Position numbers and translations under genes: made by a program. Positions 10,556 to 35,043 of a stretch of DNA of 64,000 nt are shown here, in pieces; position 1 is the stretch's first letter, and every line of letters begins with the position of its first letter. Source of the stretch: Alphaproteobacteria bacterium (GTDB lineage Bacteria > Pseudomonadota > Alphaproteobacteria > Bin95); the NCBI GenBank assembly GCA_020638555.1, contig JACKII010000006.1, forward strand, positions 137,140-201,139. Direction: 5' to 3'. The notes beneath the pieces were generated by a model that was given only the letters and a program-made list of their open reading frames with translations, did no database searches and had not been told where the DNA came from.

Positions 10556-10929
10556 GAACCAAACTTCCTCGGTTTGCCATATCGGTAAAACGGTGCGGTA
10601 GCGTCAGCGAAACTGCTTACCCAAATCAGCGAGCTTCCCTATTACCCGGACTCGGGTATGTGCACAACAATAACACGTTGTCGCACTTTGTCTTTTGCGG
10701 CAGTATAGTAGCAACGGTGACGGTGAGCAACCATTGGTGAAAGTCTTCTAAACACCATCGACACCGAAGCGGGATGCGACCGGGGTTTTGTCGGCAGTGC
10801 TGATCAAATTTGTCTATATGCCACGCGCCGGCAGGTCTGTGGGGAGGGGCGCGGGTGCCGGGGCAATTGTCGCTGGCGTATCTCGGTCCGCTCGGCGTAA
10901 GATTTCCCCGAATAACGGAGGAAACAGCC

Positions 10930-15361: not shown

Positions 15362-18300
15362 CTATACGGTATGGCAGTCCTGCGCCAGATCGTCGAAGGG
15401 TACGCCGATGATCAAGGGTTGGACATTGCCATTGGCTTCGGCCTCCGGGGTCGGGTCGAGCACCAGTCCGACAAGATCGCCGGCACCGGCTGCGTAGCCT
15501 TCGCCGTTCGCCACGGCCAGGTCGTGGATCTCCTGCGCGTTGGCTTGGGTGCCCAGGCCGCTGCTGACAAACACGAAGTCGTCGGTCAGGCCCCAGATCG
15601 CGCCTTGTACCTCGGCCTCGGTATAGGTCTGGCCGGTGCCGTCGCCGTTGTCCATCGAGGCGAAATCCTGATTCAGGATCCAGTTGATCAGATCCAGATT
15701 CTCGGGATGCCCGAGAATACCCGTCGGGACCGAACCCTCGGCAGCGAGGTAGAAGTCGTAGGGGACGTCGACCCCGACATCGATCGGCTCGAACAAGGCG
15801 AGGCAGTCGGCGCTTTCGAAGGTGACGCCGTCGAAACGGGCGTCGCCGGTGTTCGACAGCGTCACGTCGAACAGACTGCCGCCATAGGTCCTGTCCTCGC
15901 TCAGGACCAGCGTGCCGCTGGTCGGCAGGCTGGTTTCGATGGTCCCCAGTGTGTTGGTGGTGCCGTGGAAGGTGATGTCGACAGTGGCGCTGTCGACGCC
16001 GCCAAGGCCGTCGCTGACGGTATAGGCATAGCTGGCGCCCGTGTCGGTCCCGACCAGCGCGTCCTCATAGGCCGTGCCGGTCGCATCGAAAACCAACTCT
16101 CCGCCGGACAAGGTGATTTGCACGCCGTCCGACGCGGTGACGGTCTGCCCATCGGCAATCGACTGGCCGTCGACCGAGGTGATGGTCAGGCTGTTCCCAT
16201 CGGCATCCGTGTCGTTGGCCAGCACGTCGACCGTCACAGGGGTGTCCGCGCAGGTCTGGTCCGCATCGTCCATCGCGACCGGCGCGGCATTCAACTGCAC
16301 CAGGCCCGCATCCACATCGCGCTCGGCCTGGCCTGCGGCGAGACTGATCACGCCGGTCAGGCCGCCCGCGCGGGCGTCGCTGTCATTGTTGACCGCATCC
16401 GGCGCCGCCGCGCTCGCCGTCGTGAAGGCATAACCGTCCGCCGTCGTGAACCGCACCTGGTAGTTGCCGGCGTCGAGATGGTCGAACAGATACTGGCCGG
16501 CGGCGTCGGTGGCGGTCGACGCCAGCACCGCGCCGGTGCCCGCGTCGATCAGGCTGACGGTCAGGCCCGCGGCGCCTTGCTCGCCAGCGTTCCGCACGCC
16601 GTCCTTGTTGGCGTCGAACCAGACCGTGTCGCCCAGCGAGGCGTGCCGGTGGCATCCACATCGCGTTCGGCCGAGACTGATCACGCCAGTCAGGCCGCCC
16701 CGCGCAGGCGTCGCTGTCATTGTTGACCGCATCCGGCGCCGCCTCGCCGTCGTGAAGGACCAGGCCGCGCGTAGTTGCCGGCGTCGAGATGGTCGCGATA
16801 CTGGCCGGCGTTTGACGGTCCGCAGCACGCGCCGATCGGTCAGGCCGGCGCTCGTTGGTGGCAGGCAGACCGTGTCGCCCAGCGAGGCCGTGCGTCGCCA
16901 TCGCAGCTGCCTGCGGCGAGCATCCGCCGCCGCGCGGGCGTCGCTGTCATTGTTGACCGCATCCGGCGCCGCCGCGCTCGCCGTCGTGAAGGCATAACCG
17001 TCCGCCGTCGTGAACCGCACCTGGTAGTTGCCGGCGTCGAGATGGTCGAACAGATACTGGCCGGCGGCGTCGGTGGCGGTCGACGCCAGCACCGCGCCGG
17101 TGCCCGCGTCGATCAGGCTGACGGTCAGGCCCGCGGCGCCTTGCTCGCCAGCGTTCCGCACGCCGTCCTTGTTGGCGTCGAACCAGACCGTGTCGCCCAG
17201 CGAGGCCGTGCCGGTGTCGACCAGGCCCGCATCCACATCGCGTTCGGCCTCGCCTGCGGCGAGACTGATCACGCCGGTCAGGCCGCCCGCGCGGGCGTCG
17301 CTGTCATTGTTGACCGCATCCGGCGCCGTCGCGCTCGCCGTCGTGAAGGCATAACCGTCCGCCGTCGTGAACCGCACCTGGTAGTTGCCGGCGTCGAGAT
17401 GGTCGAACAGATACTGGCCGTTGGCGTTGGTGACGGTCGTCGCCAGCGCCGCGCCGGTGCCCGCATCGATCAGGCTGACGGTCAGGCCGGCGGCGCCTTG
17501 CTCGCCAGCGTTCCGCACGCCGTCCTTGTTGGCATCGAACCAGACCGTGTCGCCCAGCGAGGCCGTGCCGGTGTCGACCAGGCCCGCGTCGATATTGCGT
17601 TGGGCCTCGCCGATCGACAGGGACACCACGCCGGTCAGGTTGCTGGCGGCCGCGTCGCTGTCGTTGTTGGCGGCATCCGGCGCCAGGGGGCTCTGCGTCG
17701 TCAACGCATAGCCGTTGGGAGTGACGAATTCGACCTGATAGATGCCGGCTTTGAGGTTATCGAACAGATAATGGCCGGCGGCGTCGGTGATCGTCGTCGC
17801 GACCAGCGAACCGTTCGCCGAGTTGATCAGTTCGACGGTGACGCCCCCGGCGCCCTGTTCGCCATTGTTCAGCAGGCCATCCTTGTTCGTGTCGTACCAG
17901 ACGGTATCGCCCAGCGAGGCCGTGCCCGGATCGACCAGGCCCGCGTCGATGTTCAGTTGGACCTCGCCTTCGGTCAGGTAAATCGTGTCGGTCATGCCGT
18001 TCGCATGAGCATCCGAGTCGGTGTTCGCGAGTTCCGGTCCGTACGGCGCCTTGGTGGTGAACGCATAGCCGCCGGGCGCAACGAACATCACCTTATAGGC
18101 GCCGGGGTCCAGATCCTCGAACAGGTAATGGCCGTTCGCGTCCGTCACCTTGGTCGCCAAGACCGCACCCGAAGCCGCGTCCAGCAGCTTGACGGTCACG
18201 CCGGCGGCGCCGTGCTCGCCGATGTCCTGCAGGCCGTTCTGATTGGTATCGTACCAGACCGTGTCGCCCAGCGAGGGCTTGTCGCAGATCTCGATCCGCA

Positions 18301-21300
18301 GGTTTTCCCGGGCGGGTTCGCAGGTTGGATCGTCGGTCAGGCGGACCAGCGTGACCTCGTAGACATTGTCCTTGCCCTGATCCTGCGGATTCTCGTAGTC
18401 CGGCGCGGTCTTGAAATTCACCACGCCGTTTTCGTCGACCGTGAACAGCGCCGCATCCGGGCCTTCCAGCTGGTAGGTCACGCTGCCGGTCGCCTCGAAA
18501 TCCTGGGAGACGGTGGAGCGCACGATCTCGCGTCCGCCCGCGTCGGTCTCGTAGCTGACCTGGCCGGAAATCTCGGTAATTCTGTAGGATTGCAGGCTTT
18601 GCAGTTCGCCGACCTCGACCACCGCGTCGCCATCGTCGACCCAGAGCGCCAGCCCGTTCAGTTCCGCCCCGGAGACCACGCCGTCATGATTGGCGTCGAA
18701 CTGGGCCCGGAGCTTGGCATAGCCGTCCGTGTAGGCGCCGTTGTCGTCGCCGAACAGGCGCGAGCCGTCCATGTGGGCAAGCGCGTTGCCGTCGCGGTTG
18801 TCGATCAGGATGCCGTCGCCGGAGCCGTCGAACCATTCGATCCGCTCGGCCACGCCGTCGGCGTTCATGTCGAACAGAACGGTCTGGCCGATGGTCAGGC
18901 CGGTCTTGTCGGCCGATGACGTCGCGCCGGTCACGCCGATCTGGCCGTCATGGTTCAGATCGATTGCCACCGGCGTCGTCGCGACCACGCTGACGCGCTC
19001 GCAAGCCTGGTCCAGATCGTGATTGTAGATCTCGTCGATCACCACCCCGAACACGAAGTTCAGGGCCGAAGACTCGGTGCCGATGAAGAAGGCGTCGGAC
19101 TGGGTTTGCCCGGCCTTTACCGTGACTTGCATCTCCTCATAGCGAGGCGCATTGATTTCGTTCGCCTGGTCGGTCAGATAGGCCGCGCCGTCATAGGTGG
19201 TGGGGCCGCTGGGCAGGTCGTTCGGATCGACGGTCAGGCGGACCGTGAATGTCAGATCGGTCTCGGCGGGTTGTTCCAGAAAAACGTAATAGGGAACGGC
19301 GGTCGTCGTCGCATTGTTCCAGTGGTTCACTTGGTCTTCGTCGAAGCCGGTCTGGCCCACCCGGGCGCAGATCGGCTGGTCGACCATGAAATAGACGTCT
19401 TCGCTGACCAACTCGCAGTTGGTGTCGAAATCCCGCACGAAGGTTTCGTTTTCGCAGACCGTGATCGTCACATCGGTCGTCGCGCCGATCGTGCCGGTAT
19501 CCACGCCCGAGGTTTCCACCCCGGCCGTCACCCGGGCGGTGGCGCTGAGGCCGCCATCCGAGGCAACGCGATAATCGCCGGCAGCCAGGTCGTGGAACGA
19601 ATAGCCGCCATCGGCGCGAGTGGTTGCGGTGACGGCGTGGCCGTCGGCGTCGAGCACCTGGCTGTTGTCGGCGTGCAGCAAGGAAACGGTGCGACCGCCC
19701 AGGCCGGCCTCGCCGTCGTCCCGCTGCCCATCCTGGTCGCCATCGTAATAATAGGTGCCGGTCAGAACGCCGGTGTCATAGGTCATGTTGACCTGGCGCA
19801 CGGACACATTGTCCAGCATGGCGCCGAGGCCGTTGTCGGACTTGCCGGAGTCATAGCCGCTTTCGGTGAAGCGGATCGTGTGGGTGCCGGCGGTCAGGTG
19901 AAGGTCGAAACTGCGATGCTGGAAGCCGCGGTCGAAATTGCTGTCGGTACCGGTGCCGGTGACCTGCACGATCTCGTCGTCGACGTAAACCAGGAAGGAA
20001 TTGCTCTCGGCATCGAGCCACCAGGGCTCGTCGACGGAATTGTAGGCGCGAACCCCGTAGTCGTAGGCGACCTGATAGGTGCCGGTCTCGACGACCATGA
20101 AGGTTTGCTGAATGCCTTCCACGGCACCAGAGGTCGCATCCAGCTCGACGATCGCGTTGCCGACCGTATTGCCGGTGTTGTAGTTGCCGGTTTGCAACTC
20201 GATCCATTTGGCGTCGTTGGCGACTTGCCAGCCCGGCAGCGCCGTGCCGGTCACGCCGCCATAATTCCACCAGCCGATCGCGCCGGCATGGGCATGGTTT
20301 TCAAAGCCGCCATTGACGATCAATTCGCCGCCGAGGCTGCGGACCTCCTGGTCGACATGGTCGCCGGCCTGCAACACCCGGTATTCGAAGCCGTCGGCAT
20401 TGGCCCGCAGGCCGAAATCGACATCGCTGACGGTCTGGCCCGTGCCGACGGCCACCGCACCGCTCTGCCCGAAGCGGCCGAAGAGCTGGGCCGCATCGCT
20501 GTCGATGGCGTCGTTGCCGCCGACATTGGCGGCGACGAAGCCCTCGCCAGTGTGATCCGTGACCCGCACCCGGTAATCGTTGCTGGCGTGCAGGCCGCCG
20601 AACCGGTAGCCGCCGTCCGCATCCGTCGTCGTTTCCCGAAGCACGAACCAGTAGCCGGCGGAATAGGCGTAGAGTTGCACGGTGGCTCCGGCGATTCCGG
20701 CGTCGCCGTTGTCGATATTGTTGCCGTCGGCGTCGACGAAGACGCGACCCTGGATCGTGCCGTGGAGGGCCGAGTTTACGCCCGCATCGACATTGGTGAC
20801 ATGTTCGCCGGCCCCCAGGCTGATAGAGTTCACTTGGCCGAATTCGCCGAACGTCTGGTTGACATCGCTGTCGTTGAGGTCGTCACCGACACTCGTCGCC
20901 ACGAACGTCTCGCCGGTTTGGTTGTGAAAACGCACGCGGTAGTCCTGATGCGCGACCAGACCTTCCAGCGTGTAGTTGCCGTCGGCGTCGGTGATTGTCT
21001 CCGCGGCGACCACCCAGCCGGACCCGAAATTCGCGTAGGCCTGGACGGTGGCGCCGGCGACCCCGGCATCGCCGTCGTCGCGGGCGTTGCCATTGGCGTC
21101 ATAGAAGAACCGGCCGGAAATCGCCCCGACCTCGGCCGTTGGCACATAGCCGACGTCGATATGGCCGTAGACCTGGCCGGCTTCCAGGTGAATGACGTCG
21201 GTCAGGCCGCTCGAATACGCGTCGGAATCCACCAGGAGGTTCGCAACGCTATCCTTCTCGGAGAAGGTATAGGTGTCGATTTCGGCGAACCGGACGAAAT

Positions 21301-21538
21301 AGTCGCCGGGCGGCATTTCAAAACGGTAAGTGCCACCGGCCGTGGTATAGGTCTCGGCGACAACATTGCCCCACTCGTCCAGCAATTGCACGAGCTGGCC
21401 GGAAATCCCGGAGTCCCAACGGCCCAGGTCTGCGTTCCATTCGCCGTTGCTGCCGTCGAGATCCAAAAACAGGCGCCCCTGGATCACACCGAGGGAGGAG
21501 GCGGAAGTGCTCGAAAGCTCTTGGGTGTTGTCGGCCAT
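15362..21538 (-). CDS. Giant (2058 aa) multidomain surface adhesin-like protein with SdrD-B/Cna-B-type repeats, a carbohydrate-binding-like module, EF-hand-like/cadherin-like domains and a unique C-terminal domain
   Basis: Repeated units GDTVWxDxNxDGxxxxGExGxxGVTVxLxDxxxGxxxxTxxTDxxGxYxFxxLxxGxYxVxF. Cadherin-like segments (SVTYQLEGPDAALFTVDENGVVNFKTAPDYE; TVDVLANDTDADGNSLTITSVDG). No signal peptide. The long antisense ORFs on the + strand are shadows. Confidence 0.88.
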   Translation of the reverse strand: MADNTQELSSTSASSLGVIQGRLFLDLDGSNGEWNADLGRWDSGISGQLVQLLDEWGNVVAETYTTAGGTYRFEMPPGDYFVRFAEIDTYTFSEKDSVANLLVDSDAYSSGLTDVIHLEAGQVYGHIDVGYVPTAEVGAISGRFFYDANGNARDDGDAGVAGATVQAYANFGSGWVVAAETITDADGNYTLEGLVAHQDYRVRFHNQTGETFVATSVGDDLNDSDVNQTFGEFGQVNSISLGAGEHVTNVDAGVNSALHGTIQGRVFVDADGNNIDNGDAGIAGATVQLYAYSAGYWFVLRETTTDADGGYRFGGLHASNDYRVRVTDHTGEGFVAANVGGNDAIDSDAAQLFGRFGQSGAVAVGTGQTVSDVDFGLRANADGFEYRVLQAGDHVDQEVRSLGGELIVNGGFENHAHAGAIGWWNYGGVTGTALPGWQVANDAKWIELQTGNYNTGNTVGNAIVELDATSGAVEGIQQTFMVVETGTYQVAYDYGVRAYNSVDEPWWLDAESNSFLVYVDDEIVQVTGTGTDSNFDRGFQHRSFDLHLTAGTHTIRFTESGYDSGKSDNGLGAMLDNVSVRQVNMTYDTGVLTGTYYYDGDQDGQRDDGEAGLGGRTVSLLHADNSQVLDADGHAVTATTRADGGYSFHDLAAGDYRVASDGGLSATARVTAGVETSGVDTGTIGATTDVTITVCENETFVRDFDTNCELVSEDVYFMVDQPICARVGQTGFDEDQVNHWNNATTTAVPYYVFLEQPAETDLTFTVRLTVDPNDLPSGPTTYDGAAYLTDQANEINAPRYEEMQVTVKAGQTQSDAFFIGTESSALNFVFGVVIDEIYNHDLDQACERVSVVATTPVAIDLNHDGQIGVTGATSSADKTGLTIGQTVLFDMNADGVAERIEWFDGSGDGILIDNRDGNALAHMDGSRLFGDDNGAYTDGYAKLRAQFDANHDGVVSGAELNGLALWVDDGDAVVEVGELQSLQSYRITEISGQVSYETDAGGREIVRSTVSQDFEATGSVTYQLEGPDAALFTVDENGVVNFKTAPDYENPQDQGKDNVYEVTLVRLTDDPTCEPARENLRIEICDKPSLGDTVWYDTNQNGLQDIGEHGAAGVTVKLLDAASGAVLATKVTDANGHYLFEDLDPGAYKVMFVAPGGYAFTTKAPYGPELANTDSDAHANGMTDTIYLTEGEVQLNIDAGLVDPGTASLGDTVWYDTNKDGLLNNGEQGAGGVTVELINSANGSLVATTITDAAGHYLFDNLKAGIYQVEFVTPNGYALTTQSPLAPDAANNDSDAAASNLTGVVSLSIGEAQRNIDAGLVDTGTASLGDTVWFDANKDGVRNAGEQGAAGLTVSLIDAGTGAALATTVTNANGQYLFDHLDAGNYQVRFTTADGYAFTTASATAPDAVNNDSDARAGGLTGVISLAAGEAERDVDAGLVDTGTASLGDTVWFDANKDGVRNAGEQGAAGLTVSLIDAGTGAVLASTATDAAGQYLFDHLDAGNYQVRFTTADGYAFTTASAAAPDAVNNDSDARAAADARRRQLRWRRTASLGDTVCLPPTSAGLTDRRVLRTVKRRPVSRPSRRRQLRAAWSFTTARRRRMRSTMTATPARGGLTGVISLGRTRCGCHRHASLGDTVWFDANKDGVRNAGEQGAAGLTVSLIDAGTGAVLASTATDAAGQYLFDHLDAGNYQVRFTTADGYAFTTASAAAPDAVNNDSDARAGGLTGVISLAAGQAERDVDAGLVQLNAAPVAMDDADQTCADTPVTVDVLANDTDADGNSLTITSVDGQSIADGQTVTASDGVQITLSGGELVFDATGTAYEDALVGTDTGASYAYTVSDGLGGVDSATVDITFHGTTNTLGTIETSLPTSGTLVLSEDRTYGGSLFDVTLSNTGDARFDGVTFESADCLALFEPIDVGVDVPYDFYLAAEGSVPTGILGHPENLDLINWILNQDFASMDNGDGTGQTYTEAEVQGAIWGLTDDFVFVSSGLGTQANAQEIHDLAVANGEGYAAGAGDLVGLVLDPTPEAEANGNVQPLIIGVPFDDLAQDCHTV
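16300..18280 (-). repeat. Tandem array of six ~357-bp (119-codon) coding repeats inside the adhesin gene
   Basis: The anchor GTGTCGCCCAGCGAGGC (GTATCG variant at 17904) occurs at 16626, 16872, 17190, 17547, 17904 and 18261. Spacings are 246, 318, 357, 357 and 357 nt. 16381..16642 is identical by eye to 16945..17206. Confidence 0.85.
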
Positions 21539-22627: not shown

Positions 22628-23596
22628 ATGCGCGACGACGACGAACTCCGCCATGCGACGATTCCGCCAGCACTGGCCGGCGAACGGCTGGACCGTGCCG
22701 CGGCAGCGTTGTGGCCCGATTTGTCGCGCACGCGGCTGCGCGTCCTGATCGAGAGCGGCGACCTGCGGACGGACCGGGCGCTTTCCCCGTCGGCGACGGT
22801 GCGGGAAGGAGAGGCGCTGAGCCTGCGCCTGCCGCCGCCCGTGGCGTCGCGGTTGGAACCGCAGGCCATTCCGCTTGCGATTCTCTATGAAGACGAGGCC
22901 GTGCTGGTGATCGACAAGCCGCCGGGCCTGGTGGTGCATCCGGCGCCCGGGCACCCGGACGGAACCCTGGTCAACGCCGTTCTGGCCCATTGCGGCGACA
23001 GCCTGGCGGGTGTCGGCGGCGAGCGGCGCCCCGGGATTGTCCACCGTCTCGACAAGGACACCAGCGGCGTCATGGTGGTCGCCAAGAGCCAGGCCGCGCA
23101 TGCGAACCTGGTGGCGCAATTCCAGGTGCATTCGATCGAACGCGCCTACATCGCCTTCGTTTCCGGAACGCCCAATCCGCCGCAGGCCCTGATCGACCTG
23201 CCCATCGGCCGCCATCCGGGCGACCGCAAGCGCATGAGCGTCGTCGCCCGCGGCCGGCCCGCCCGGACCCATTATACGGTCGAACGCTATTTCGGACAGG
23301 TGGCGGCGCAGGTGCGCTGCCGGCTGGAGACCGGGCGCACCCATCAGATCCGGGTGCACCTGTCGCATTCCGGCCTGCCGGTGCTGGGGGATCCGGTCTA
23401 CCTCAATATGTCGAGCGCGCGCCGTGCCGCCCTGAAGCCGGTGGAGGCTACGCTCAAATCCCTAGGGCGGCAGGCGCTGCATGCGGCGGTTCTGGGCTTT
23501 GCCCATCCATTAAGCGGTGAAACCGTCCGTTTCGAGAGCGATCTGCCCTCAGATTTGCGTTCACTGCAAAAATGTTTGATCCAATCCTACGCTTAA
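22628..23596 (+). CDS. rluD: 23S rRNA pseudouridine synthase, RluA/RluD family
   Basis: S4-like N-terminus (GERLDRAAAALWPDLSRTRLRVLIESGDLRTD). Catalytic block HRLDKDTSGVMVVAK and C-terminal TGRTHQIRVH. Confidence 0.92.
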   Translation: MRDDDELRHATIPPALAGERLDRAAAALWPDLSRTRLRVLIESGDLRTDRALSPSATVREGEALSLRLPPPVASRLEPQAIPLAILYEDEAVLVIDKPPGLVVHPAPGHPDGTLVNAVLAHCGDSLAGVGGERRPGIVHRLDKDTSGVMVVAKSQAAHANLVAQFQVHSIERAYIAFVSGTPNPPQALIDLPIGRHPGDRKRMSVVARGRPARTHYTVERYFGQVAAQVRCRLETGRTHQIRVHLSHSGLPVLGDPVYLNMSSARRAALKPVEATLKSLGRQALHAAVLGFAHPLSGETVRFESDLPSDLRSLQKCLIQSYA

Positions 23597-23755
23597 TCCG
23601 TATCAGTGTTAGAACCATATCAAGCACCCGGCCCCTAAAAGCGCCAATTTGCTGCCTGTGCGAATTGTGTATTTCGCATAGCGGCGAGGCGGCCTTACAT
23701 ATGGTCCGGTGAATGGCTCCGTGACGGGCCATTACGAGTAGAGAGGGATGTGACT

Positions 23756-24670
23756 ATGGCTGTTCCGGCAACGATTCCTGCAATTTCCGCCGAGGGGAAC
23801 CTGACCCGGTATCTGCAGGAAATCCGCAAATTCCCGATGTTGGATCCCGACGAGGAATTCATGCTGGCCAAGCGCTGGCAGGAGCACGAGGACGTGGAAG
23901 CCGTCCACAAAATGGTGACCAGCCATTTGCGGCTGGTGGCGAAGATTGCCATGGGCTATCGCGGCTACGGCCTGCCGGTTGGCGAGCTGATCTCGGAAGG
24001 CAATGTCGGGATGATGCAGGCGGTGAAACGCTTCGACCCCGACCGTGGCTTCCGTCTGGCGACCTATGCCATGTGGTGGATCCGCGCCTCGATCCAGGAA
24101 TACATTCTGCATTCCTGGTCGCTGGTGAAAATGGGCACCACGGCGGCGCAAAAGAAGCTGTTTTTCAACCTGCGCAAGATCAAGGGCCAGTTGAAGGCGC
24201 TGGACGACGGCGACCTCAGCCCGGAAAACGTCGAGAAGATCGCGACCCGGCTCCAGGTGAGCCAGGACGACGTGATCTCGATGAACCGGCGCCTGTCCGG
24301 CGGCGACCAGTCGCTGAACGCGCCGCTGCGCATCGATGGCGACGGCGAATGGCAGGATTGGCTGGAGGACGAGTCCGACAGCCAGGAAGTGCTGATCGGC
24401 GAGGAGGAGGAACTCGACCATCGTCGCCGCATGCTGGGCGAGGCGATGGAGTGCCTGAACGCGCGCGAGCGGCACATCCTGACCGAGCGGCGCCTGAAGG
24501 ACGATCCGGCGACCCTGGAAGATCTGAGTCACGAATACGGCATCAGCCGCGAGCGCGTGCGCCAGATCGAGGTGCGGGCGTTCGAGAAGCTGCAACGGGC
24601 GATGCGCGCCGCGGCGATCCAGGAAAACCTGGCCGCCAAAAAGGCCTCGGAGGCGTATCTGGTAGGGTAA
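23756..24670 (+). CDS. rpoH: RNA polymerase sigma-32 (heat-shock sigma factor)
   Basis: ORF begins at GTG 23750; ATG 23756 has a GAGAGGGA RBS. Region 2 reads GLPVGELISEGNVGMMQAVKRFDPDRGFRLATYAMWWIRASIQEYIL. RpoH box AAQKKLFFNLRK and region 4 LEDLSHEYGISRERVRQIE. Confidence 0.93.
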   Translation: MAVPATIPAISAEGNLTRYLQEIRKFPMLDPDEEFMLAKRWQEHEDVEAVHKMVTSHLRLVAKIAMGYRGYGLPVGELISEGNVGMMQAVKRFDPDRGFRLATYAMWWIRASIQEYILHSWSLVKMGTTAAQKKLFFNLRKIKGQLKALDDGDLSPENVEKIATRLQVSQDDVISMNRRLSGGDQSLNAPLRIDGDGEWQDWLEDESDSQEVLIGEEEELDHRRRMLGEAMECLNARERHILTERRLKDDPATLEDLSHEYGISRERVRQIEVRAFEKLQRAMRAAAIQENLAAKKASEAYLVG

Positions 24671-24699
24671 TCCGGCGAAAAGCGCCGGCCACCGGCGTG

Positions 24700-24777
24700 C
24701 CCCGGAGGTGGCGGAGCGCCGCTCCGGGGCGGCCGGGACTCCCTGTTCCCCGGAGGTGGCTGAGCCGCCATCCGGGG
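24700..24777. repeat. Two copies of a 30-nt GC-rich palindromic (REP-like) hairpin between convergent genes
   Basis: CCCCGGAGGTGGCGGAGCGCCGCTCCGGGG (24700..24729) and CCCCGGAGGTGGCTGAGCCGCCATCCGGGG (24748..24777). Both have outer stem CCCCGGA/TCCGGGG. They may serve as terminators for rpoH and the convergent gene. Confidence 0.6.
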
Positions 24778-24878
24778 CCGGCGTCATCCTTCGAACACCG
24801 CCGCCGCGGGTGTTCGCGAGAGCGACCGGTCCCGGCGCACCGCTCCGCGGCGGCCGGGACACACCCGCCTGAAATCCC

Positions 24879-26984
24879 TCAGCCGAGGCCGCGAGCGAAG
24901 GCGATCGTGTCGGCCCAGTCCGGGCGGTCGATCAGGGGATTGCGGTTGCCCTGCGCGGTCGCAACCGTTGCGTTGCGATGCAACTCCCAGGGAGAGTCGG
25001 CGGGCGGCGATTGCCGGTGCCAGTCCAGGAGGATGGGGATGCGGTCGGCGCTGAACTCGTTGCTGGTGTCGTTGACGAAGCCGGGATAGCGCAGCAGGAA
25101 ATACAGGGTGGCGCGCGCCACCGCCCCTTTGTTGAAGCCCGGCTCGAAATTGTGGCCGTCGATCTTGCCGCAATCGCCGCGGACGGCCTCGCCGAAATCC
25201 GGGAAGTCGGTGTAGGGGTGGTTCGAGCGGAAGCTGTTGCAGCGCGATTCGCAGGTGAACAGGTGGTGCAGGTCGGTCCGCATCGGGTTCTTCTTGTCGA
25301 ACCAGGATTGCGGCACCACGTGCTCGCAATTGAAGGGCAGGGCGGCCTCGAACTCGGCCAGTTCGTCGGCGATGTCCTCGTCGCTGCGAGTGGACTCGAT
25401 GGCCAGCAATTCCGTGCGGCGTTGGTCGAGCAGGGCCTCCAGCGCGCGCTCCTGGGCGATGATCATTTCTGCCGGAAACGCCTCGCCGGAATAGACGCTG
25501 CGCAGCAGGCCGTCCGGATAGCGGTCGATGACGGGATAGAGGTGATCGAGCCGCGCTTCGGAGTAGCTGAACACGCGCTCGTGGCTTTGGCGCAACAGGT
25601 CCGACAATTGCTGATAGAGCCCGGCCGGGTCCGCGGTGTCGTCGATGTCCGCGTAATACCGGCGCGCGGCTTCCCGATCCGCCGCTGCGTCATAATATTC
25701 GGTATCGACACCGGGCAATGGCGGCTCCGGCGGGGTGGGCGGTACCGGGGTTGGTGGCACCGGGGTTGGCGGCGTACCGACTCCCGTTCCGGTACCCGTG
25801 CCCGTCTCCGGCGGGGCGGGGCCGACCCGAACCGTCGGCGCGCCGACGTCGATCTTGGCCCCATTCGCGCCGAAACTGACCTGGAGCGGCAAGGTGAAGG
25901 CGACCTGACCGCCCACGGTGGCGGCGCCGGTCGAACCGCTCGCGGTCGGCGTGTCGGTCTCCAGCCGCCGCGGATGCAGGGTCAGCGCCTCGTCGATCAG
26001 CCGCTGGCGGTCGGGTGCCAGGGTCAGCGAGCGCAAATGGCGGACGATGCGCGATGCGCGGACGCCCTCGTTCGCGACCCATTTGATCGGGCGCACGATC
26101 TGCCCGCTGGCATCGGTCTCCGGAACGCCGGAATGGTGCAGGGCCACCACCTCCCAGGCGTCGTTGAACACCGGCGAGCCGCTGGAGCCGGGCTCGGTGT
26201 CGGTGGAGTAGTGCAGGAACAGGTCCGGGTCGTCGGTCAGGTGCAACAGCCGGTTGTCGCGGAACGCGATCTGCTTCGGGCCGCCATTCGGGTGCTGGAT
26301 GATGTTGAGCGGTTCGCCGACCAGCACCTTGCCCTCTTCGCCGATCAGCCTGTGCCAGCCATAGGACCGCGGCTCGGTTCCGCCAGCGGTCCGCCCGACG
26401 GCGACCAGCGCAAAGTCCAGGTTGAAATCGGACACGAAAAAGCGCGAAGGCTCCAGCGGGAACAGCACGCTCTGCCGCATCGCCCCCAGCGGGCCTTCCT
26501 CATAGTCCATTTCAAGCTGGCTGTTCTGCGCGTCGATGGCGGTTTGCAGCACGTGATGGTTCGTCAGCACCAGTTGCGGCGAGACGAGGAAGCCGGTGCC
26601 GTAGCCGACAATGCGTTGGGAGGCGTCGCGAATGCGGATACGCCCCACCGCCCGCGAGGCCCGGTTGCCGTGCGAGAGATAGCGGACGCCGGTCAGATTG
26701 TTCTGGCCCAGCACCCGCTCCAGCCCGACGCGGGCGGTTTCGTCGTGGTCCGCCAGGGCAATGGCGGCGCGCGCGGGCTGCATCGCCTCTTCGGGCTTCA
26801 GTTCGGCCGCCAGCTCGCGGAAGCCCAGCCGGCGCAGGCGCTTGCCGACCCGCTCGTGCCGGTCCAGTTCCAGGGGCGTCTTGCCGTCCTTCAGGGCTTG
26901 CTGGACCGCGGCGATCGCGGCTCGGGCCTTGCGGTAGCGTTCGGCCGCGCGTTCCATCTGGATCTGGTCATAACCCGTCTGCAT
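24879..26984 (-). CDS. Fusion protein: helical N-terminal region + trypsin-like serine protease (Trypsin_2-type) + Pro/Thr-rich linker + Endonuclease I (EndA/Vvn-type) domain
   Basis: ORF 24879..27134; preferred start is ATG 26984 (MQTGYDQIQMERAAERYRK) with AAAGGAAG RBS. Protease triad candidates: LTNHHVL, DFALVAV, GSSGSPVFN. Linker GTGTGTGVGTPPTPVPPTPVPPTPPEPPLPG. Nuclease motifs FNCEHVVPQSWF, DLHHLFTCESRCNSFRSNHPY, ARATLYFLLRYPG. No signal peptide is visible. Confidence 0.85.
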   Translation of the reverse strand: MQTGYDQIQMERAAERYRKARAAIAAVQQALKDGKTPLELDRHERVGKRLRRLGFRELAAELKPEEAMQPARAAIALADHDETARVGLERVLGQNNLTGVRYLSHGNRASRAVGRIRIRDASQRIVGYGTGFLVSPQLVLTNHHVLQTAIDAQNSQLEMDYEEGPLGAMRQSVLFPLEPSRFFVSDFNLDFALVAVGRTAGGTEPRSYGWHRLIGEEGKVLVGEPLNIIQHPNGGPKQIAFRDNRLLHLTDDPDLFLHYSTDTEPGSSGSPVFNDAWEVVALHHSGVPETDASGQIVRPIKWVANEGVRASRIVRHLRSLTLAPDRQRLIDEALTLHPRRLETDTPTASGSTGAATVGGQVAFTLPLQVSFGANGAKIDVGAPTVRVGPAPPETGTGTGTGVGTPPTPVPPTPVPPTPPEPPLPGVDTEYYDAAADREAARRYYADIDDTADPAGLYQQLSDLLRQSHERVFSYSEARLDHLYPVIDRYPDGLLRSVYSGEAFPAEMIIAQERALEALLDQRRTELLAIESTRSDEDIADELAEFEAALPFNCEHVVPQSWFDKKNPMRTDLHHLFTCESRCNSFRSNHPYTDFPDFGEAVRGDCGKIDGHNFEPGFNKGAVARATLYFLLRYPGFVNDTSNEFSADRIPILLDWHRQSPPADSPWELHRNATVATAQGNRNPLIDRPDWADTIAFARGLG

Positions 26985-27132
26985 TGCCGGCTTCCTTTCG
27001 ATCCTGCGCTGGCGCCCCACCGCGGGAAAGCCTAACCCGTGTCGGTGGCCCCGGCTATGAGCGACTTCACACGAGGTGCCCCGCGGCGGTAGTATCCGGG
27101 CGACCACACACGCCAAAACGCGGGAGGACGCC

Positions 27133-27525
27133 ATGTCCGTCGGCTTGCTCGACCACTACAATATTCGCACGGCCAAACTGGCCGAAACGGTGGGCTTTTA
27201 TGAGAAGGTCCTGGGCCTGAAGGACGGCGACCGGCCGAATTTTGCCTTCCCCGGCGCCTGGCTCTACAGCGAAGGCCGCCCGGTGCTGCATCTGATCGAC
27301 ATTTCCGGCAGCGGCGAAGGGCAGAAGGACGGTACCGGCTGCATCGATCATATCGCCTTTGTCAGCAATGGCTTCGAGGCGATGAAAACGCATCTGGAGT
27401 CGACCGGCTACGAATACGAGGCGCGCATCGTGCCGGGCGGCAAGCTCTGGCAGATTTTCGTGCGCGACCCGAACGGGCTGCTGATCGAGCTGAACTACGA
27501 CGCTGCCGCCGAACAGGCCGCCTGA
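27133..27525 (+). CDS. VOC family protein (glyoxalase-like)
   Basis: ORF 27076..27525; preferred start is ATG 27133 (MSVGLLDHYNIRTAKLAETVGFYEKVLGL) with GGGAGGA RBS. Also IDHIAFVSNGFEAMKTHL ... QIFVRDPNGLLIEL. Confidence 0.8.
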   Translation: MSVGLLDHYNIRTAKLAETVGFYEKVLGLKDGDRPNFAFPGAWLYSEGRPVLHLIDISGSGEGQKDGTGCIDHIAFVSNGFEAMKTHLESTGYEYEARIVPGGKLWQIFVRDPNGLLIELNYDAAAEQAA

Positions 27526-27544: not shown

Positions 27545-28372
27545 ATGGACGCCATCGCCTACCGCGTCGAAGCGGGCTATGAGTTTCCGAGCGAAATCCT
27601 GACCGTGACCGAGGGCGAGCAGCGCTGGCGCCATGCCTGCTGCGACATCCCGCACGGCTTTTATGGCGACCGCGCCGACCCGACCATCCTGGCCACCCGG
27701 CCGATCAAGGTGATCGGCGAGGCGCTGTTCGCCAATTACGACGACCGCGGCTATGTCCACACCGAAAGCACGATCGAGCAATTCGCGCCGATCCCGCTGG
27801 AAGCGCCGATCGCCTTTGCCGGGCGATTCACGGCGGTGGACGACCACCCGCGCGGCTGGATGATGCACGGTGCCTTCACCTATCACGGCCCGGACGGCCG
27901 GCTTTTGCTGGAAGTCAAGCCGAAGGCGCTGATGGCCGACCAGACCAAGATGCGGCCACGGCCGGCAGTGGCGGCGGAGGATGGCTATTCCACCGCCCTG
28001 CGCCCGCCGCCGCCCGTGGATCTGGAGCCGGGCTGGGAGTTGCTGTGCAACCGGCAGGTGACGCCGGCCAAATGCCTCGGCTACAGCGGCAACACCCGCA
28101 ACATCATCCACACCGACCCGGCCTATGCGCAGAATTTCGGCTATCGCATGCCGATTTTCGCCGGCAATGCCATGGTGCAGAACCTGGTTCAGGTGGCGCA
28201 GACGGACGGGTTGCTGGACGCGTTCAAGGTGCATGTGCGCATGTTGCGCCCGGTGCACTGGGACGACGGCCTCGCCATTGTCGGCCGGCGTGACGACGCC
28301 GGCCGCATTGTCGAGGTCCGTGCCATCGGGCCGGAGGGCAAGCCCACCAACGATCTCGTGCGGCTCGACTGA
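27545..28372 (+). CDS. Hotdog-fold (MaoC-dehydratase-like) protein, tentative
   Basis: 275 aa. The C-terminal half carries a MaoC-like block NIIHTDPAYAQNFGYRMPIFAGNAMV. It starts 19 nt after the VOC gene, so is probably co-transcribed. Confidence 0.5.
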   Translation: MDAIAYRVEAGYEFPSEILTVTEGEQRWRHACCDIPHGFYGDRADPTILATRPIKVIGEALFANYDDRGYVHTESTIEQFAPIPLEAPIAFAGRFTAVDDHPRGWMMHGAFTYHGPDGRLLLEVKPKALMADQTKMRPRPAVAAEDGYSTALRPPPPVDLEPGWELLCNRQVTPAKCLGYSGNTRNIIHTDPAYAQNFGYRMPIFAGNAMVQNLVQVAQTDGLLDAFKVHVRMLRPVHWDDGLAIVGRRDDAGRIVEVRAIGPEGKPTNDLVRLD

Positions 28373-31614: not shown

Positions 31615-32023
31615 GGGTGGGGAACTCCCTGTTCTTCGGTTTTGGTTGGCTTGGCGGGTAGCCGACGGCTATTCGGCCGTCAGGGCGATGGGGGGCGGGC
31701 GGCTTCCGGCGCATGCTGCCCTCGGCAACGCCGCGCGAGCGCCGGTGTTGGCGGTTGGAAGCCGTCGATACTCTCGGCCATTGTCCCGATACGCGGGTTC
31801 TTGGGATACACACGGTTATGGCGGTAAGCGTCCGCAGTCATGGCGCAATTTCCTCCAGTGCCACTGCCGCGTAACGTTTGGCGCCGTTGGACAGTTTGAC
31901 ACGCGGGATTAAGACACAAGCCAGAGGTCGGACGCCAGAAATTTTTATCCACGCCAAAGGGTCGCCGGTTTGAAGGGCGCGGGATATAGTCTTGGGCCAC
32001 GACTGAAGGATTGAGAGCTTCCG

Positions 32024-32650
32024 GTGTTTCACGAAACGGATTTCGACCGGCTGCGGGCCGGGATCGACCGCAATATGCGCGGTTTCACGCCGTCGGCGGC
32101 AACGGCTGACGGGCTGAAACGGGCCGCCGTCGCCATCACCGTGACGGCCGACGAGACGGGGGCGCCCGCCTTCTTTCTGACGAAGCGGGCGCCGCGCCTG
32201 AATCGCCATTCCGGGCAGTGGGCGCTGCCGGGCGGCCGCCTCGACCCGGGCGAGGATGCGATCACGGCGGCCTTGCGCGAAATGGACGAGGAAATCGGCG
32301 TGCGGCTCGAGGCTTCGGCCGTGCTGGGCCTGTTGGACGACTACCCGACCCGCTCCGGCTATTGCATCACGCCGGTGGTGGTCTGGGCCGGTCCCGGCGT
32401 CGAGGCCGTGCCGAATCCGGACGAGGTGGCCCGCCTGCACCGCATCCCGCTGGCGCATCTGGCGCCGGACGATGTGGTGGAACTGGCACCCATCCCCGAC
32501 AGCGAGCACCCGCTGGTCCGCGTGCACATCGCCGAAAGCCATGTTCACGCGCCGACCGCGGCCTTGATTTACCAGTTCCGCGAGGTGGCGCTCGCCGGCC
32601 GGCACACGCCGGTCGCCCACCTGGAACAGCCGAAATGGGCCTGGCGATAG
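32024..32650 (+). CDS. NUDIX hydrolase (CoA pyrophosphatase-like)
   Basis: Nudix box LPGGRLDPGEDAITAALREMDEEIGV. The ORF starts at GTG 32024; the true start is uncertain. Confidence 0.82.
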   Translation: MFHETDFDRLRAGIDRNMRGFTPSAATADGLKRAAVAITVTADETGAPAFFLTKRAPRLNRHSGQWALPGGRLDPGEDAITAALREMDEEIGVRLEASAVLGLLDDYPTRSGYCITPVVVWAGPGVEAVPNPDEVARLHRIPLAHLAPDDVVELAPIPDSEHPLVRVHIAESHVHAPTAALIYQFREVALAGRHTPVAHLEQPKWAWR

Positions 32651-32785
32651 GGGGAATGCGTCACCGGGCGGCTTTCCCGGCCGAGCCCCAGGCGAGAGCC
32701 GGGACCTCATGCGGGAGGCAGGCCCGGCCGGAGGTCCCGGATCGCCGCTTTGCGCCGTCCGGGAAAGTTCGGGGTGGCGTGCGTC

Positions 32786-34018
32786 TCAGTCGACGATGGC
32801 CTGGTAGGTCAGTACCCGCAATTCGCGGCGCACCGGATAGGTGCTGCTCGGCATCAACTGGGTCAGGAAGACCACGGCCATGTCCTCGGCCGGATCGCAC
32901 CAGAAGGCGGTGCTGGCGGCGCCGCCCCAGGCATATTCGCCGGGGGTGCCCAGAATGTGCGCCTTGGCCGGGTCCAGCATGACCGAGAATCCCAGGCCGA
33001 AGCCGATGCCATAATACGGGCTTTCGGAGAAAGTCGGCTGACCCATCTCCGCCATGTCGCCGCCCAGATGGTTGCTGGTCATCAGCTCCACGGTCTTGCG
33101 GCCCAGCAGGCGCACGCCCTCCAACTCGCCCTTGTTCAGCAGGAACTGGCAGAAGCGCAGATAGTCGTGGGCGGTCGAGACCAGACCGCCGCCGCCGCTC
33201 GCCACCGGCGGCATGGCGTTGTAGCGCGGGCTGTCCTGGGGATCGTCGATCAGGGCCAGGCCGCCATCCGGCTTGCGGGTGTAGTTGCCGGCAAACCGGT
33301 CCAGCTTGTCGGCCGGCACCCAGAAATCGGTATCGACCATGCCCAGGGGCCGGATCACCCTTTCGCGCAGGAACACGTCGAACGGCTGGCCGCTGATTTG
33401 CTGCACCAGATAGCCGAGCACGTCGGTGGCGACCGAATAGTTCCATTCCGTGCCGGGCTGGGCGATCAGCGGCGCCTGCACCAGCTTGTCGATCACCTCG
33501 TCCAGCGACTTGTTCTCGCCCCAGTTGAAGTCGATGCCGTTCGACCGGTAGAGCGCATCGACCGGGTTCGACTCCATGAAGCCATAGGTCAGGCCGGAGG
33601 TGTGCGAGAGCAGGTCGCGATAGGTGATTTCGCGGTGCGCGGGCTCGGTCGCGATGGTGCCGCGGCTGCCGCCGGTCATCACCCGCATGTGTTTGAAGCC
33701 CGGCGCATAATGGCTGATCGGGTCGTCCAGCTGGAAGTGGCCGTCCTCGTACAGCATCATGATCGCCGTCGAGGTCAGCGGCTTGGTCATCGAATAGATA
33801 CGGAAAATCGTGTCGAGCGCGGCCGGCTTGCTGCGCTCGATATCCGCCTGGCCGGTGACGCCGGCATGGACGATCTCGCCCCGGCGCAGGACCGCGGTCA
33901 GGGCGCAGGGCAGTTTGCCGGAATTGACCCATTTCTCGCGCCAGGCGTCGACGCGGGCGAGCCGGTCGGTCGAAAGGCCGACGGATTCCGGGGTGGCGGT
34001 GGTGGCGATGGCTGGCAT
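32786..34018 (-). CDS. Serine hydrolase, beta-lactamase/esterase (class C-like) family
   Basis: SxxK motif in FRIYSMTKPLTS. 410 aa, with no signal peptide. Confidence 0.8.
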   Translation of the reverse strand: MPAIATTATPESVGLSTDRLARVDAWREKWVNSGKLPCALTAVLRRGEIVHAGVTGQADIERSKPAALDTIFRIYSMTKPLTSTAIMMLYEDGHFQLDDPISHYAPGFKHMRVMTGGSRGTIATEPAHREITYRDLLSHTSGLTYGFMESNPVDALYRSNGIDFNWGENKSLDEVIDKLVQAPLIAQPGTEWNYSVATDVLGYLVQQISGQPFDVFLRERVIRPLGMVDTDFWVPADKLDRFAGNYTRKPDGGLALIDDPQDSPRYNAMPPVASGGGGLVSTAHDYLRFCQFLLNKGELEGVRLLGRKTVELMTSNHLGGDMAEMGQPTFSESPYYGIGFGLGFSVMLDPAKAHILGTPGEYAWGGAASTAFWCDPAEDMAVVFLTQLMPSSTYPVRRELRVLTYQAIVD

Positions 34019-34170
34019 GGGCGCAGGGCTCCAGGTCGGTCGGGAAGGCGGTGCATAAGACTAAGGCCGCAGTCTAGGCCGACCGAAGCGGGCGCGCCTA
34101 GCCCCTAGTCACCGACGCGATCACGACGCAGGCCCACTCTCCCTTCGATAATGCCGGGCATACCGGACGC

Positions 34171-34200: not shown

Positions 34201-34223
34201 GTGCGTTGATTTGGCTGTTCGGC

Positions 34224-34865
34224 TCAGCGCTGGCGACGCACCAGACCGAGCACGACCAGGCCGCCGCCCAGCAGGGCGAGCGTGGCCGGAGCCGGGACCC
34301 GTGCGGAGAGGCCGGTGAACTCGAACGCGTTCGAGGAAGAAGCGAAGCGCACCTCGTCGAACGGACCCGTGAACGTGACATAGACGTTCGAGGTCGGCGG
34401 GTTCGTCGGCGCCAGCGGCGGGTTGACGTCCGTCTGATCGAACGGGCCACCGACCTGCATGCCGTTCAGGTAAAAGGTCAGGCCGTTATAGTCGTCCGGC
34501 GACCCCCAGAGGAAGCTGAGGGAGGACATTTGGCGCGAGAAGCTCAGGATGGCCGGATTGGCCGGATTGTCCGGGCCAACGGCGAAATACATGAGATCTA
34601 TGGCGCCGGCCAGGGAGCTGGTGAACGTATCGCTCACCGTCTCGTCGAACGGCGAGCGGGCAATGCCCGAAATATTGCCCGAGCGGATGGTCGGCGCGGC
34701 GGACCAAGAGGCGAACGCCGGCAACGCCACCGGAGCCGCATTGGTGCTGACGTCGACCATGCTGTAATCGTTCGGCCCGCCGATGCTGGTGAGGGCAACG
34801 GCACTGGCCGCGACGGGAACCGCCATGAGGGCGATGGCCGCCAGAGGGGCAAGGATGAGTTTCAT
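34224..34865 (-). CDS. PEP-CTERM sorting-domain protein (putative exosortase substrate)
   Basis: ORF 34224..34892; preferred start is ATG 34865 (MKLILAPLAAIALMAVPVAASA, a Sec signal) with GGAGG RBS. C-terminus VPAPATLALLGGGLVVLGLVRRQR matches the PEP-like motif + TM helix + basic tail. Confidence 0.8.
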   Translation of the reverse strand: MKLILAPLAAIALMAVPVAASAVALTSIGGPNDYSMVDVSTNAAPVALPAFASWSAAPTIRSGNISGIARSPFDETVSDTFTSSLAGAIDLMYFAVGPDNPANPAILSFSRQMSSLSFLWGSPDDYNGLTFYLNGMQVGGPFDQTDVNPPLAPTNPPTSNVYVTFTGPFDEVRFASSSNAFEFTGLSARVPAPATLALLGGGLVVLGLVRRQR

Positions 34866-35043
34866 GGTGATGCCTCCAATATATAACACCACCGATTTGT
34901 ATGCATTGCCTATGCCAGATCAAATACCAACATATCCTGCTAAAAAATGTATTATATTAATGTTTTATGGAGTGATAGTGTAAAGAAAGCTGACACTGTA
35001 AAAGGAGAATTTTACACATATAGCATAAATTGTCGATACTATA
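34866..35043 (-). promoter_or_regulatory. AT-rich leader/promoter region of the PEP-CTERM gene
   Basis: About 28% G+C over 34921..35040 by hand count. GAGAATTTT at 35005..35013 lies 140 nt upstream of the start. Confidence 0.45.

Follow-up and report, generated by a model that had tools for sequence, protein, structure and literature searches.

What is the role of a protein that carries a trypsin-like serine protease and an Endonuclease I-type nuclease on one polypeptide, and where in the cell would it act? We identified a gene for such a protein in a 64,000-nucleotide (nt) stretch of the genome of an alphaproteobacterium (GTDB lineage Bin95; GenBank assembly GCA_020638555.1, contig JACKII010000006.1, positions 137,140 to 201,139 of the forward strand). 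The whole of this stretch is referred to as the window, and positions are those of the window unless the locus of a relative is named. A first-pass annotation of the DNA suggested that the fusion protein is a latent, cytoplasmic DNA-degrading effector or, alternatively, a non-classically secreted scavenging enzyme. The reading that we favor, tentatively and with a little under an even chance of being correct, is that it is a self-contained cytoplasmic zymogen-effector that would dismantle the cell once triggered (abortive infection or programmed death), with the proteolytic gating inferred from the comparisons described below.

The mechanical open reading frame (ORF) of the gene extends to 27134 and would encode 751 amino acids (aa). 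We rejected this longer form: it has no ribosome-binding site and overlaps the start of a divergent VOC gene, and homologs align from the start of the 701-aa form. The ATG at 26984 is the better start because of this overlap, because homologs align from about there and because a Shine-Dalgarno-like sequence precedes it.
24879..26984, minus strand: coding sequence of the protease-Endonuclease I fusion, 701 aa, stop codon included
26991..26997, minus strand: Shine-Dalgarno-like motif AAGGAAG, which precedes the ATG at 26984 by 6 nt (read from the sequence)

A Pfam scan of the 701-aa protein identified Trypsin_2 (PF13365) at aa 129-282 (E 5e-24; 86.1 bits, cut-off 27.6) and Endonuclease_1 (PF04231) at aa 546-688 (E 9e-28; 98.1 bits, cut-off 25). 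Both families had been expected in the first-pass annotation, and both lie far above their curated cut-offs. All of the motifs it had named in this 701-aa ORF were confirmed by translation, namely the low-complexity linker, the protease triad in VLTNHHVL (H144), NLDFALVAV (D190) and GSSGSPVFN (S268), and the Endonuclease I hallmarks LPFNCEHVVPQSWF (H555) and DLHHLFTCESRCNSFRSNHPY (N583, N588). Loss of catalytic residues, raised in that annotation as a possible objection, was looked for in alignments of 113 homologs. The triad, H555 and N583 are invariant in all of them, as are E554, C578, C582 and C605; N588 is retained in at least 90%. An AlphaFold2 model of the fusion protein, built on the same 113 homologs, has a mean predicted local distance difference test score (pLDDT) of 83.9 and a predicted template modeling score (pTM) of 0.57. 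In this model the chymotrypsin-fold core of the protease reaches approximately aa 335, the linker has pLDDT <50, disordered stretches lie at aa 344-361 and, in the linker, at aa 391-419, and a helix-rich nuclease domain extends from approximately aa 428 to the C-terminus, starting at a conserved YYD...YY segment. Thus, the nuclease domain is larger than its Pfam match. The parts of the protein that follow the N-terminal region are as follows.
25980..26714, minus strand: S1B-type (Trypsin_2) serine protease domain, aa 91-335 (Pfam, alignments, model)
26553-26555 (H144), 26415-26417 (D190) and 26181-26183 (S268), minus strand: protease triad codons (translation)
25827..25901, minus strand: small conserved beta unit, aa 362-386, consensus DG..TWTIPLQVS..LG, flanked by disordered segments; part of the constant module described below
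25704..25826, minus strand: low-complexity Gly/Thr and Pro/Thr linker, aa 387-427, predicted to be disordered (translation and model)
24882..25703, minus strand: Endonuclease I-type beta-beta-alpha-metal nuclease domain, aa 428-701 (Pfam, alignments)
25320-25322 (H555), 25236-25238 (N583) and 25221-25223 (N588), minus strand: nuclease catalytic and metal residues (translation)
25341..25472, minus strand: two-helix segment, aa 505-548, just before the catalytic NCEH strand (model and alignment); a speculative candidate for a gating insert

To locate the protein in the cell, we applied a home-made test combining hydropathy (Kyte-Doolittle) with a scan for Tat and lipobox motifs to the query and the 113 homologs. 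Over the first 60 aa of the query, the Kyte-Doolittle mean for stretches of 10 aa peaks at 1.45, compared with 2.66 for the OmpA signal peptide used as a control. By this test no signal-like, Tat-like or lipobox-like feature was found in the query or in 113 of the 113 homologs, extending to the family the absence of Sec, Tat and lipoprotein signals noted in the first-pass annotation. Nor did Pfam identify any known secretion-system domain in the fusion protein. Because the hydrophobic core and the Tat and lipobox motifs are lacking throughout, we conclude that the protein is very probably cytoplasmic. An exported relative (L085) carries a visible export domain, a Por_Secre_tail, along with Ig-like domains.

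These results bear on the possibility that the protein is an extracellular enzyme for scavenging, predation or competition (including a role like that of polymorphic toxins), released non-classically or by lysis of a subpopulation. Once outside, the protease would either process the nuclease or act alongside it. Characterized Endonuclease I enzymes are indeed periplasmic or secreted (PMC5714182), the closest solved relatives of the protease are also secreted, and the combination of an unchanging N-terminal module with varying toxic domains at the C-terminus bears a formal likeness to polymorphic toxins. However, export signals and secretion-system domains are missing from 113 members, the family spans phyla that share no specialized secretion system, and the relative that is exported displays its export domain plainly. 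Unlike polymorphic toxins, the fusion protein has no trafficking domain (Pfam) and no conserved downstream immunity gene in the loci of relatives that we fetched. The cysteines of the nuclease, discussed next, also differ from those of periplasmic enzymes. We consider an extracellular role very improbable, and the secreted scavenger suggested in the first-pass annotation gained no positive support.

On the alignments, the nuclease is assigned to the Endonuclease I family as a member of a distinct signal-less clade that it shares with Bacillaceae proteins consisting of Endonuclease I only. Like E. coli EndA and Vibrio Vvn/Dns, it matches PF04231, has its catalytic His in ..EHVVP.. and can be aligned with the Vvn and EndA structures (2pu3, 1oup, 2g7e, 2vnd) via the DLHxL and N..RSN motifs, the latter corresponding to VNGDRSN of 2pu3 and 1oup. 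Whereas EndA, Vvn and Dns are exported, disulfide-stabilized enzymes, members of the clade have no signal peptide, possess about 120 extra N-terminal residues that include the two-helix segment (which varies in length among relatives), and have cysteines of their own, C578 and C582. These two residues align to Ala and Val of the periplasmic Endonuclease I 2pu3, and the cysteine pattern is therefore not that of the disulfide-stabilized enzymes. By forming a metal site, the cysteines of the clade may take the place of the disulfides found in exported enzymes. As a separate observation, C578, C582 and C605 (25164-25274) are invariant throughout this signal-less clade, Bacillaceae members included, and a further cysteine, C553, is encoded at 25326-25328.

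The stand-alone Bacillaceae relatives are 257-322 aa long, lack a signal peptide, and keep the YYD...YY segment as well as C578, C582 and C605. Directly upstream of the Endonuclease I-only gene, five of the 16 loci from Bacillaceae encode a subtilase that has no signal, is about 320 aa long and resembles intracellular proteases; the stop and start codons of the two genes overlap. Given these pairs, the signal-less clade has been combined with a protease at least twice, using different protease folds. The pairs of subtilase and Endonuclease I-only genes are found in five Bacillaceae genomes.
L061, 8961-10735
L066, 8970-10747
L069, 8970-10741
L074, 8964-10723
L077, 5813-7548

What might hold such an enzyme in check? 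The protease is assigned to the S1B group from its sequence and predicted fold. Its closest solved relatives by sequence profile are SplE, V8 glutamyl endopeptidase, the exfoliative toxins and Esp (E 2e-13 to 1e-9). The best fold match (Foldseek) is the protease domain of FAM111A (E 3e-12), followed by RsgI9, Esp, V8, Spl, DegS and HtrA. The likeness to FAM111A (8s9k, 8s9l; TM-score 0.69 normalized to the target) is one of fold only, as that protein is eukaryotic, about 20% identical, lacks a fused nuclease and has other N-terminal regions. FAM111A, an autocleaving intracellular protease of the trypsin-like type, is active at DNA and has a role in restricting viruses. The fusion protease has the GxSGSPVFN motif in common with staphylococcal V8/SspA, Esp, SplA-F and the exfoliative toxins. 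Those are secreted virulence proteases with a signal peptide, a short pro-peptide and no fused effector; in the fusion protein, by contrast, the position of the pro-peptide is filled by a conserved helical region of 89 aa, and there is no signal peptide.

S1B proteases (V8, Esp, Spl) are zymogens, and removal of a pro-segment frees a precise, active N-terminus (cf. the titles of PDB 6q24, 6tya and 6u1b). Position 31 of the profile of the protease region aligns with residue 22 of both mature V8 and mature Esp, and the additional residues of pro-Esp sit N-terminal to that aligned point. Extrapolated to the fusion protein, the mature V8/Esp N-terminus falls at aa ~90-93, at E89-R90, which are the only invariant residues in the N-terminal third in four alignments. 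Because of this mapping and the zymogen habit of S1B proteases, we propose E89-R90 as the activation junction and aa 1-89 as a pro-region. The cut might fall after Glu89, if the enzyme is Glu-specific like V8, or after Arg90, as the invariant D262, located six positions ahead of S268, would suggest.
26718..26984, minus strand: helical region at the N-terminus (aa 1-89), conserved across all effector variants; putative pro-region
26715..26720, minus strand: invariant E89-R90 in LER(V/I)LGxND; putative zymogen activation junction (alignments and mature V8/Esp numbering)

In the AlphaFold2 model, helices span aa 3-86, the first of them with 30 residues, and pLDDT is >90 for aa 11-50. Residues 87-112 form a conserved coil and helix that lead into the protease. 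The helical N-terminus described in the first-pass annotation is therefore real, with a length of about 89 aa rather than the 110 aa proposed. The region has no sequence match in the PDB, and a domain-only model of moderate quality (pLDDT 74) returned no PDB fold match at E <1 (Foldseek). No CARD or death-domain match was obtained for it with the same model or in the PDB sequence search. We considered whether it could be a CARD-like adaptor or one shared with NTPases and rejected both, because a profile search found the region solely in front of this protease. As it accompanies the protease whatever the effector, the N-terminal region presumably serves the protease and not the nuclease.

The fusion is far from unique. 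More than 3,500 database proteins match it, and a survey of the best 120 of these bore out the fusion as a conserved architecture: nearly all are 680-800 aa long with the same two Pfam domains and 42-48% identity, and a few partial-coverage matches reach 55%. The closest relatives are only 47-50% identical (best alignment identity 50%). Hosts include cyanobacteria, myxobacteria, Streptomyces, Acidobacteriota, Chloroflexota, Nitrospira, Planctomycetota and some Alphaproteobacteria. No published description of the family was found in a literature search; coupling to Trypsin_2 has been noted only for the Endonuclease_NS-type group, and was read as related to virulence (Jablonska et al. 2017, PMC5714182).

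Interchangeable enzymes are attached to a constant module, which is made up of the N-terminal region, the protease and the beta unit. When 1.8 billion representative proteins were searched with a profile of aa 1-112, 605 clusters matched, and in nearly all of the 150 matches listed the region sits at the N-terminus of the protein. Trypsin_2 is present in all 43 of the full-length representatives of these matches (43/43). The second domains identified by Pfam in the same representatives are diverse.
Endonuclease_1: 17/43 representatives
Endonuclease_NS (EndoG/NucA type): 13/43 representatives
PLDc_2: 5/43 representatives
Peptidase_S8: 2/43 representatives
Lipase_3: 2/43 representatives
GDSL lipase: 1/43 representatives
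Metallophos: 1/43 representatives

Further variants of the module carry an EEP nuclease/phosphatase, an N-terminal LCAT/PGAP1-type lipase or an unassigned alpha/beta-hydrolase-like domain. In none of the variants did we find an NTPase or another sensor domain joined to the module. The Endonuclease_NS branch is itself large, with 2,870 matches in a search seeded with a Mesorhizobium Endonuclease_NS variant. In two proteins the protease is followed first by EEP (Exo_endo_phos) and then by Endonuclease I (L023 9452-12658, from a Hyphomicrobiales metagenome-assembled genome, and L052 242-3244, from a Chitinophaga metagenome-assembled genome); the former is the closest alphaproteobacterial relative of the fusion protein (51% in the best segment). 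A 923-aa 'endonuclease' on a Mesorhizobium plasmid (L090 7800-10571) is similar to these two in length. Streptomyces sp. NPDC006134 (L012) encodes two paralogous modules of pro-region and protease on the same strand, 5.6 kb apart (10253-11038 and 15881-16672).

Swapping of effectors on a constant module, the most telling of our results, is typical of conflict systems, and thus favors an effector of that type. Relatives are also common on plasmids: 139 plasmid records carry them, chiefly from Bacillus, Rhizobium, Sinorhizobium, Bradyrhizobium, Nostoc and Streptomyces. Effector swapping and frequent plasmid carriage are comparative hallmarks of a conflict-system effector, and the sequences support their presence here. 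Of the cytoplasmic effector imagined in the first-pass annotation, the cytoplasmic location is supported by the signal-less homologs and the conflict-type character by the domain swapping and plasmids; its latency is part of the mechanism proposed below.

Does the gene have partners? Every ORF of 100 aa or more in the fetched loci of relatives was compared with all the others, and no partner or immunity gene was conserved across phyla. Apparent clusters of shared neighbors were dismissed as generic: they consisted of subtilases, of ABC ATPases or, the DNA being GC-rich, of antisense ORFs. In seven annotated chromosomal neighborhoods the gene is solitary, with unrelated neighbors. Since only generic families are shared among loci and the neighbors in these seven contexts are unrelated, we conclude that the gene is solitary across the family. 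A Fischerella copy lies amid AIPR, ParE/Phd, Tn3 and integrase genes, and another relative adjoins dnaA. Phage genomes yielded only two weak matches, both to the nuclease domain.

Some plasmid copies have further degradative enzymes as neighbors. Plasmid pGM3709_07 of Geminocystis sp. NIES-3709 (L092 1468-7431) encodes a module protein of 662 aa, for which the annotation says no more than 'trypsin-like peptidase domain-containing protein'. Genes for GH19, a TPR protein, N-acetylmuramoyl-L-alanine amidase and a murein endopeptidase come after it on its strand, an arrangement that resembles a lysis cassette. A Bradyrhizobium barranii plasmid encodes a family member with an S1/P1 nuclease downstream (L094 6968-10061), a B. 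thuringiensis plasmid one with two M12 metallopeptidases upstream (L093 5273-8752), and a B. mycoides plasmid one with a divergent S8 peptidase (L091 5904-10565).

Neighbors such as cell-wall hydrolases or other nucleases, seen in some cases, could also be expected if the protein were a factor for developmental or stress-induced autolysis and recycling, which would dismantle DNA (or, for the paralogs, membranes) in dying cells, for example in mother cells, during differentiation of fruiting bodies or filaments, or upon starvation. The protein would then not be an anti-phage system. The prominence of the family in cyanobacteria, myxobacteria, Streptomyces, Nitrospira, Planctomycetota and Acidobacteriota, groups with complex life cycles, is in line with such a function, as are the mostly housekeeping chromosomal contexts and the pairing in Bacillaceae of an intracellular-type subtilase with the Endonuclease I-only form. 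We nevertheless regard it as quite unlikely: frequent plasmid carriage and effector swapping fit conflict systems better, and the family is patchily distributed within genera and highly divergent in sequence (recall the 47-50% identity of the closest relatives).

The statement in the first-pass annotation that no characterized system has this architecture no longer holds. LypC (ACL94044.1), of the CARD-NLR-like LypABC system of Caulobacter crescentus, is described as a cytoplasmic protein with a part in regulated cell death and lysis, in which an N-terminal extension with a trypsin-like peptidase, a flexible linker and an endonuclease are joined in one polypeptide (Banks et al., bioRxiv 10.1101/2025.05.08.652646; Nat Microbiol 2026, PMC13236601). 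Its protease is essential, and its nuclease dispensable, for the lysis that is tied to release of the gene transfer agent (PMC13236601). We compared LypC with the fusion protein by its description and by residue spacings. The domain order is the same and the His-to-Asn spacing is 34 in LypC and 33 here. However, the Ser-to-His distance is 175 in LypC and 287 in the fusion protein (249-311 in Endonuclease_NS variants), which argues that LypC is not a close member of the family. No Caulobacter protein is among the best 120 of the >3,500 homologs or the best 120 of the 2,870, and the spacing signature of LypC (S296/H471/N505, 662 aa) matched none of the best 120 homologs listed for the Endonuclease_NS variant. 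Also, lypC lies in an operon with genes for LypA (a CARD-protease) and LypB (an NLR-like ATPase), whereas the fusion gene is solitary.

If the fusion protein nonetheless worked as LypC may do, it would be the downstream executioner of a sensor encoded elsewhere, with an NLR/STAND-type or other sensor activating an initiator protease that cleaves the pro-region, and its own protease, not its nuclease, as the key output. LypC, with the same domain order, is described as acting with LypA and LypB, and other CARD-NLR systems use nuclease or phospholipase effectors. Moreover, the fusion protein has no visible sensor domain of its own, and an invariant junction at the end of a pro-region would be well suited to being cut by a separate protease. 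But no gene for an NLR/STAND or CARD-protease was found within 10 kb of the fusion gene in the window, or as a conserved neighbor in the fetched loci. The N-terminal region shows no CARD or death-fold similarity and only precedes this protease, never an NTPase, and the differing Ser-to-His distances separate the two proteins further. We consider an executioner of this kind unlikely. LypC also lends something to the autolysis factor considered above, as it serves regulated host lysis and not defense.

Returning to the zymogen-effector, we envisage that the protein would be made in a latent form. A trigger (phage infection or another lethal stress) would lead to cleavage at E89-R90, freeing the N-terminus of the protease as in the maturation of V8 and Esp zymogens. 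This activation might be autocatalytic in trans, and hence dependent on concentration or oligomerization, or might be performed by another protease. The active protease may then cut the disordered linker, or the two-helix segment in front of the nuclease site, to free the nuclease; alternatively, the protease may just work side by side with its tethered nuclease. In the end, the DNA and proteins of the cell would be destroyed, either as abortive infection or as programmed cell death and lysis.

Several observations weigh against this interpretation. The locus in the window is made up of housekeeping genes (rluD, rpoH, VOC, a TRAP transporter). Defense-island enrichment, which the first-pass annotation had raised as a sign to look for among homologs, is not evident in about eight chromosomal contexts, a small sample in which most are housekeeping. 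Searches of PADLOC-DB v2.0.0 gave weak matches to the protease only (RT-Protease_XI 4.7e-7, LmuA 1e-3, PDC-S45 3e-3). No recognizable sensor domain is present in the fusion protein. The putative cleavage site at E89-R90 is placed by alignment register alone, with an uncertainty of 2-3 residues. A single gate for chemically unrelated effectors is hard to picture, unless the latency resides in the protease or in the tether. Finally, in LypC, the only studied protein with this architecture, nuclease activity is dispensable while the protease is essential.

A bolder version of the zymogen-effector, possible in our view but doubtful, is that these proteins are widespread single-polypeptide executioners of the cytoplasm, S1B-type zymogens in which the conserved helical pro-region is both lock and sensor. 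Self-activation at the invariant Glu-Arg junction would unleash the effector fused to the module, be it Endonuclease I, an EndoG-like nuclease, PLD, a lipase, a phosphoesterase or a subtilase, and a single gene would then amount to a system of abortive infection or programmed death.

The concept of a protease-gated effector already has recent precedents, and the fusion family is large and unnamed. In the Hachiman (HamMAB), AVAST and canu systems, nucleases of the metallo-beta-lactamase (MBL) fold stay latent until a trypsin-like or caspase protease turns them into active DNases (Tuck et al., Science 2025, PMC12799240), which is the mechanism suggested for the fusion protein in the first-pass annotation. 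The fusion protein would, by hypothesis, share with these the coupling of a protease to a non-specific DNase that is latent until cut, with death or arrest as the end. In contrast to those systems, its nuclease is of the Endonuclease I type and not of the MBL fold, and one gene without a sensor takes the place of separate nuclease and protease genes, the protease there being joined to a helicase or STAND sensor. In those systems experiments have shown that an insertion blocking the active site does the gating, whereas for the fusion protein such gating is hypothetical. CARD-NLR systems use trypsin-like proteases to drive gasdermin, phospholipase or endonuclease effectors (Wein et al., PMC10312443). 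The fusion gene differs in having no NLR-like STAND ATPase gene as a neighbor in the window, the fetched loci or the seven annotated contexts, and its product in having an N-terminus without a CARD-like fold match.

If the zymogen-effector is correct, thousands of genes annotated as 'endonuclease' or 'trypsin-like peptidase domain-containing protein' would be single-gene systems for cell suicide or defense, operated by a simple switch, the removal of a pro-region at E89-R90. Proteolytic activation of latent effectors, as seen with the MBL nucleases of Hachiman, AVAST and canu, would widen to a fused, sensor-less format with several effector chemistries. The paralogs with swapped effectors constitute a natural experiment on how one control module restrains unrelated toxic enzymes. 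In practical terms, a DNase that is compact and gated by a protease might find use as a kill switch. Should the protein instead prove to be an enzyme of autolysis or recycling, the annotation of a large family would still improve.

Members of the Endonuclease_NS branch join a protease of HtrA-family type to an EndoG-type nuclease, and so bear on the proposed bacterial roots of eukaryotic apoptotic enzymes. In eukaryotic apoptosis, an HtrA-family protease and an EndoG-type nuclease are released by mitochondria. These members would then be, if the reading holds, a bacterial fusion of the two enzyme types.

In the window, the fusion gene stands alone between the rluD-rpoH pair and the VOC gene. 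Its convergent neighbor is rpoH (23750-24670), with rluD (22628-23596) beyond, and the divergent neighbor is the Glyoxalase/VOC gene (27076-27525), with the TRAP transporter farther on. The spacer between the convergent rpoH and fusion genes contains a repeat.
24697..24856, no strand: three copies of a 39-nt GC-rich repeat (100%, 79% and 69% identity)

The first two copies fold as hairpins (-29 and -26 kcal/mol). The first-pass annotation had placed the gene correctly, as solitary, convergent with rpoH and divergent from the VOC gene. It had also called the hairpins REP-like, a label that is not established because their core motif was found nowhere else in the 64-kb window. A dispersed repetitive extragenic palindromic (REP) family was rejected on the same grounds, the motif being confined within the window to the rpoH-side spacer. 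In the simplest reading, the hairpins are probably a bidirectional terminator.

Other ORFs of the window include one of 275 aa directly downstream of the VOC gene (27545-28372, plus strand), for which Pfam gave nothing at E up to 1e-5. Three more without a Pfam match lie at 31838-32710, 32750-34108 and 34206-34886; some of these ORFs may be spurious, as the DNA is GC-rich. On the other side of the fusion gene, an ORF of 2,058 aa (15362-21538, minus strand) contains nine SdrD B-like repeats together with CarboxypepD_reg, Big_9 and cadherin-like domains, and probably encodes a giant surface adhesin.

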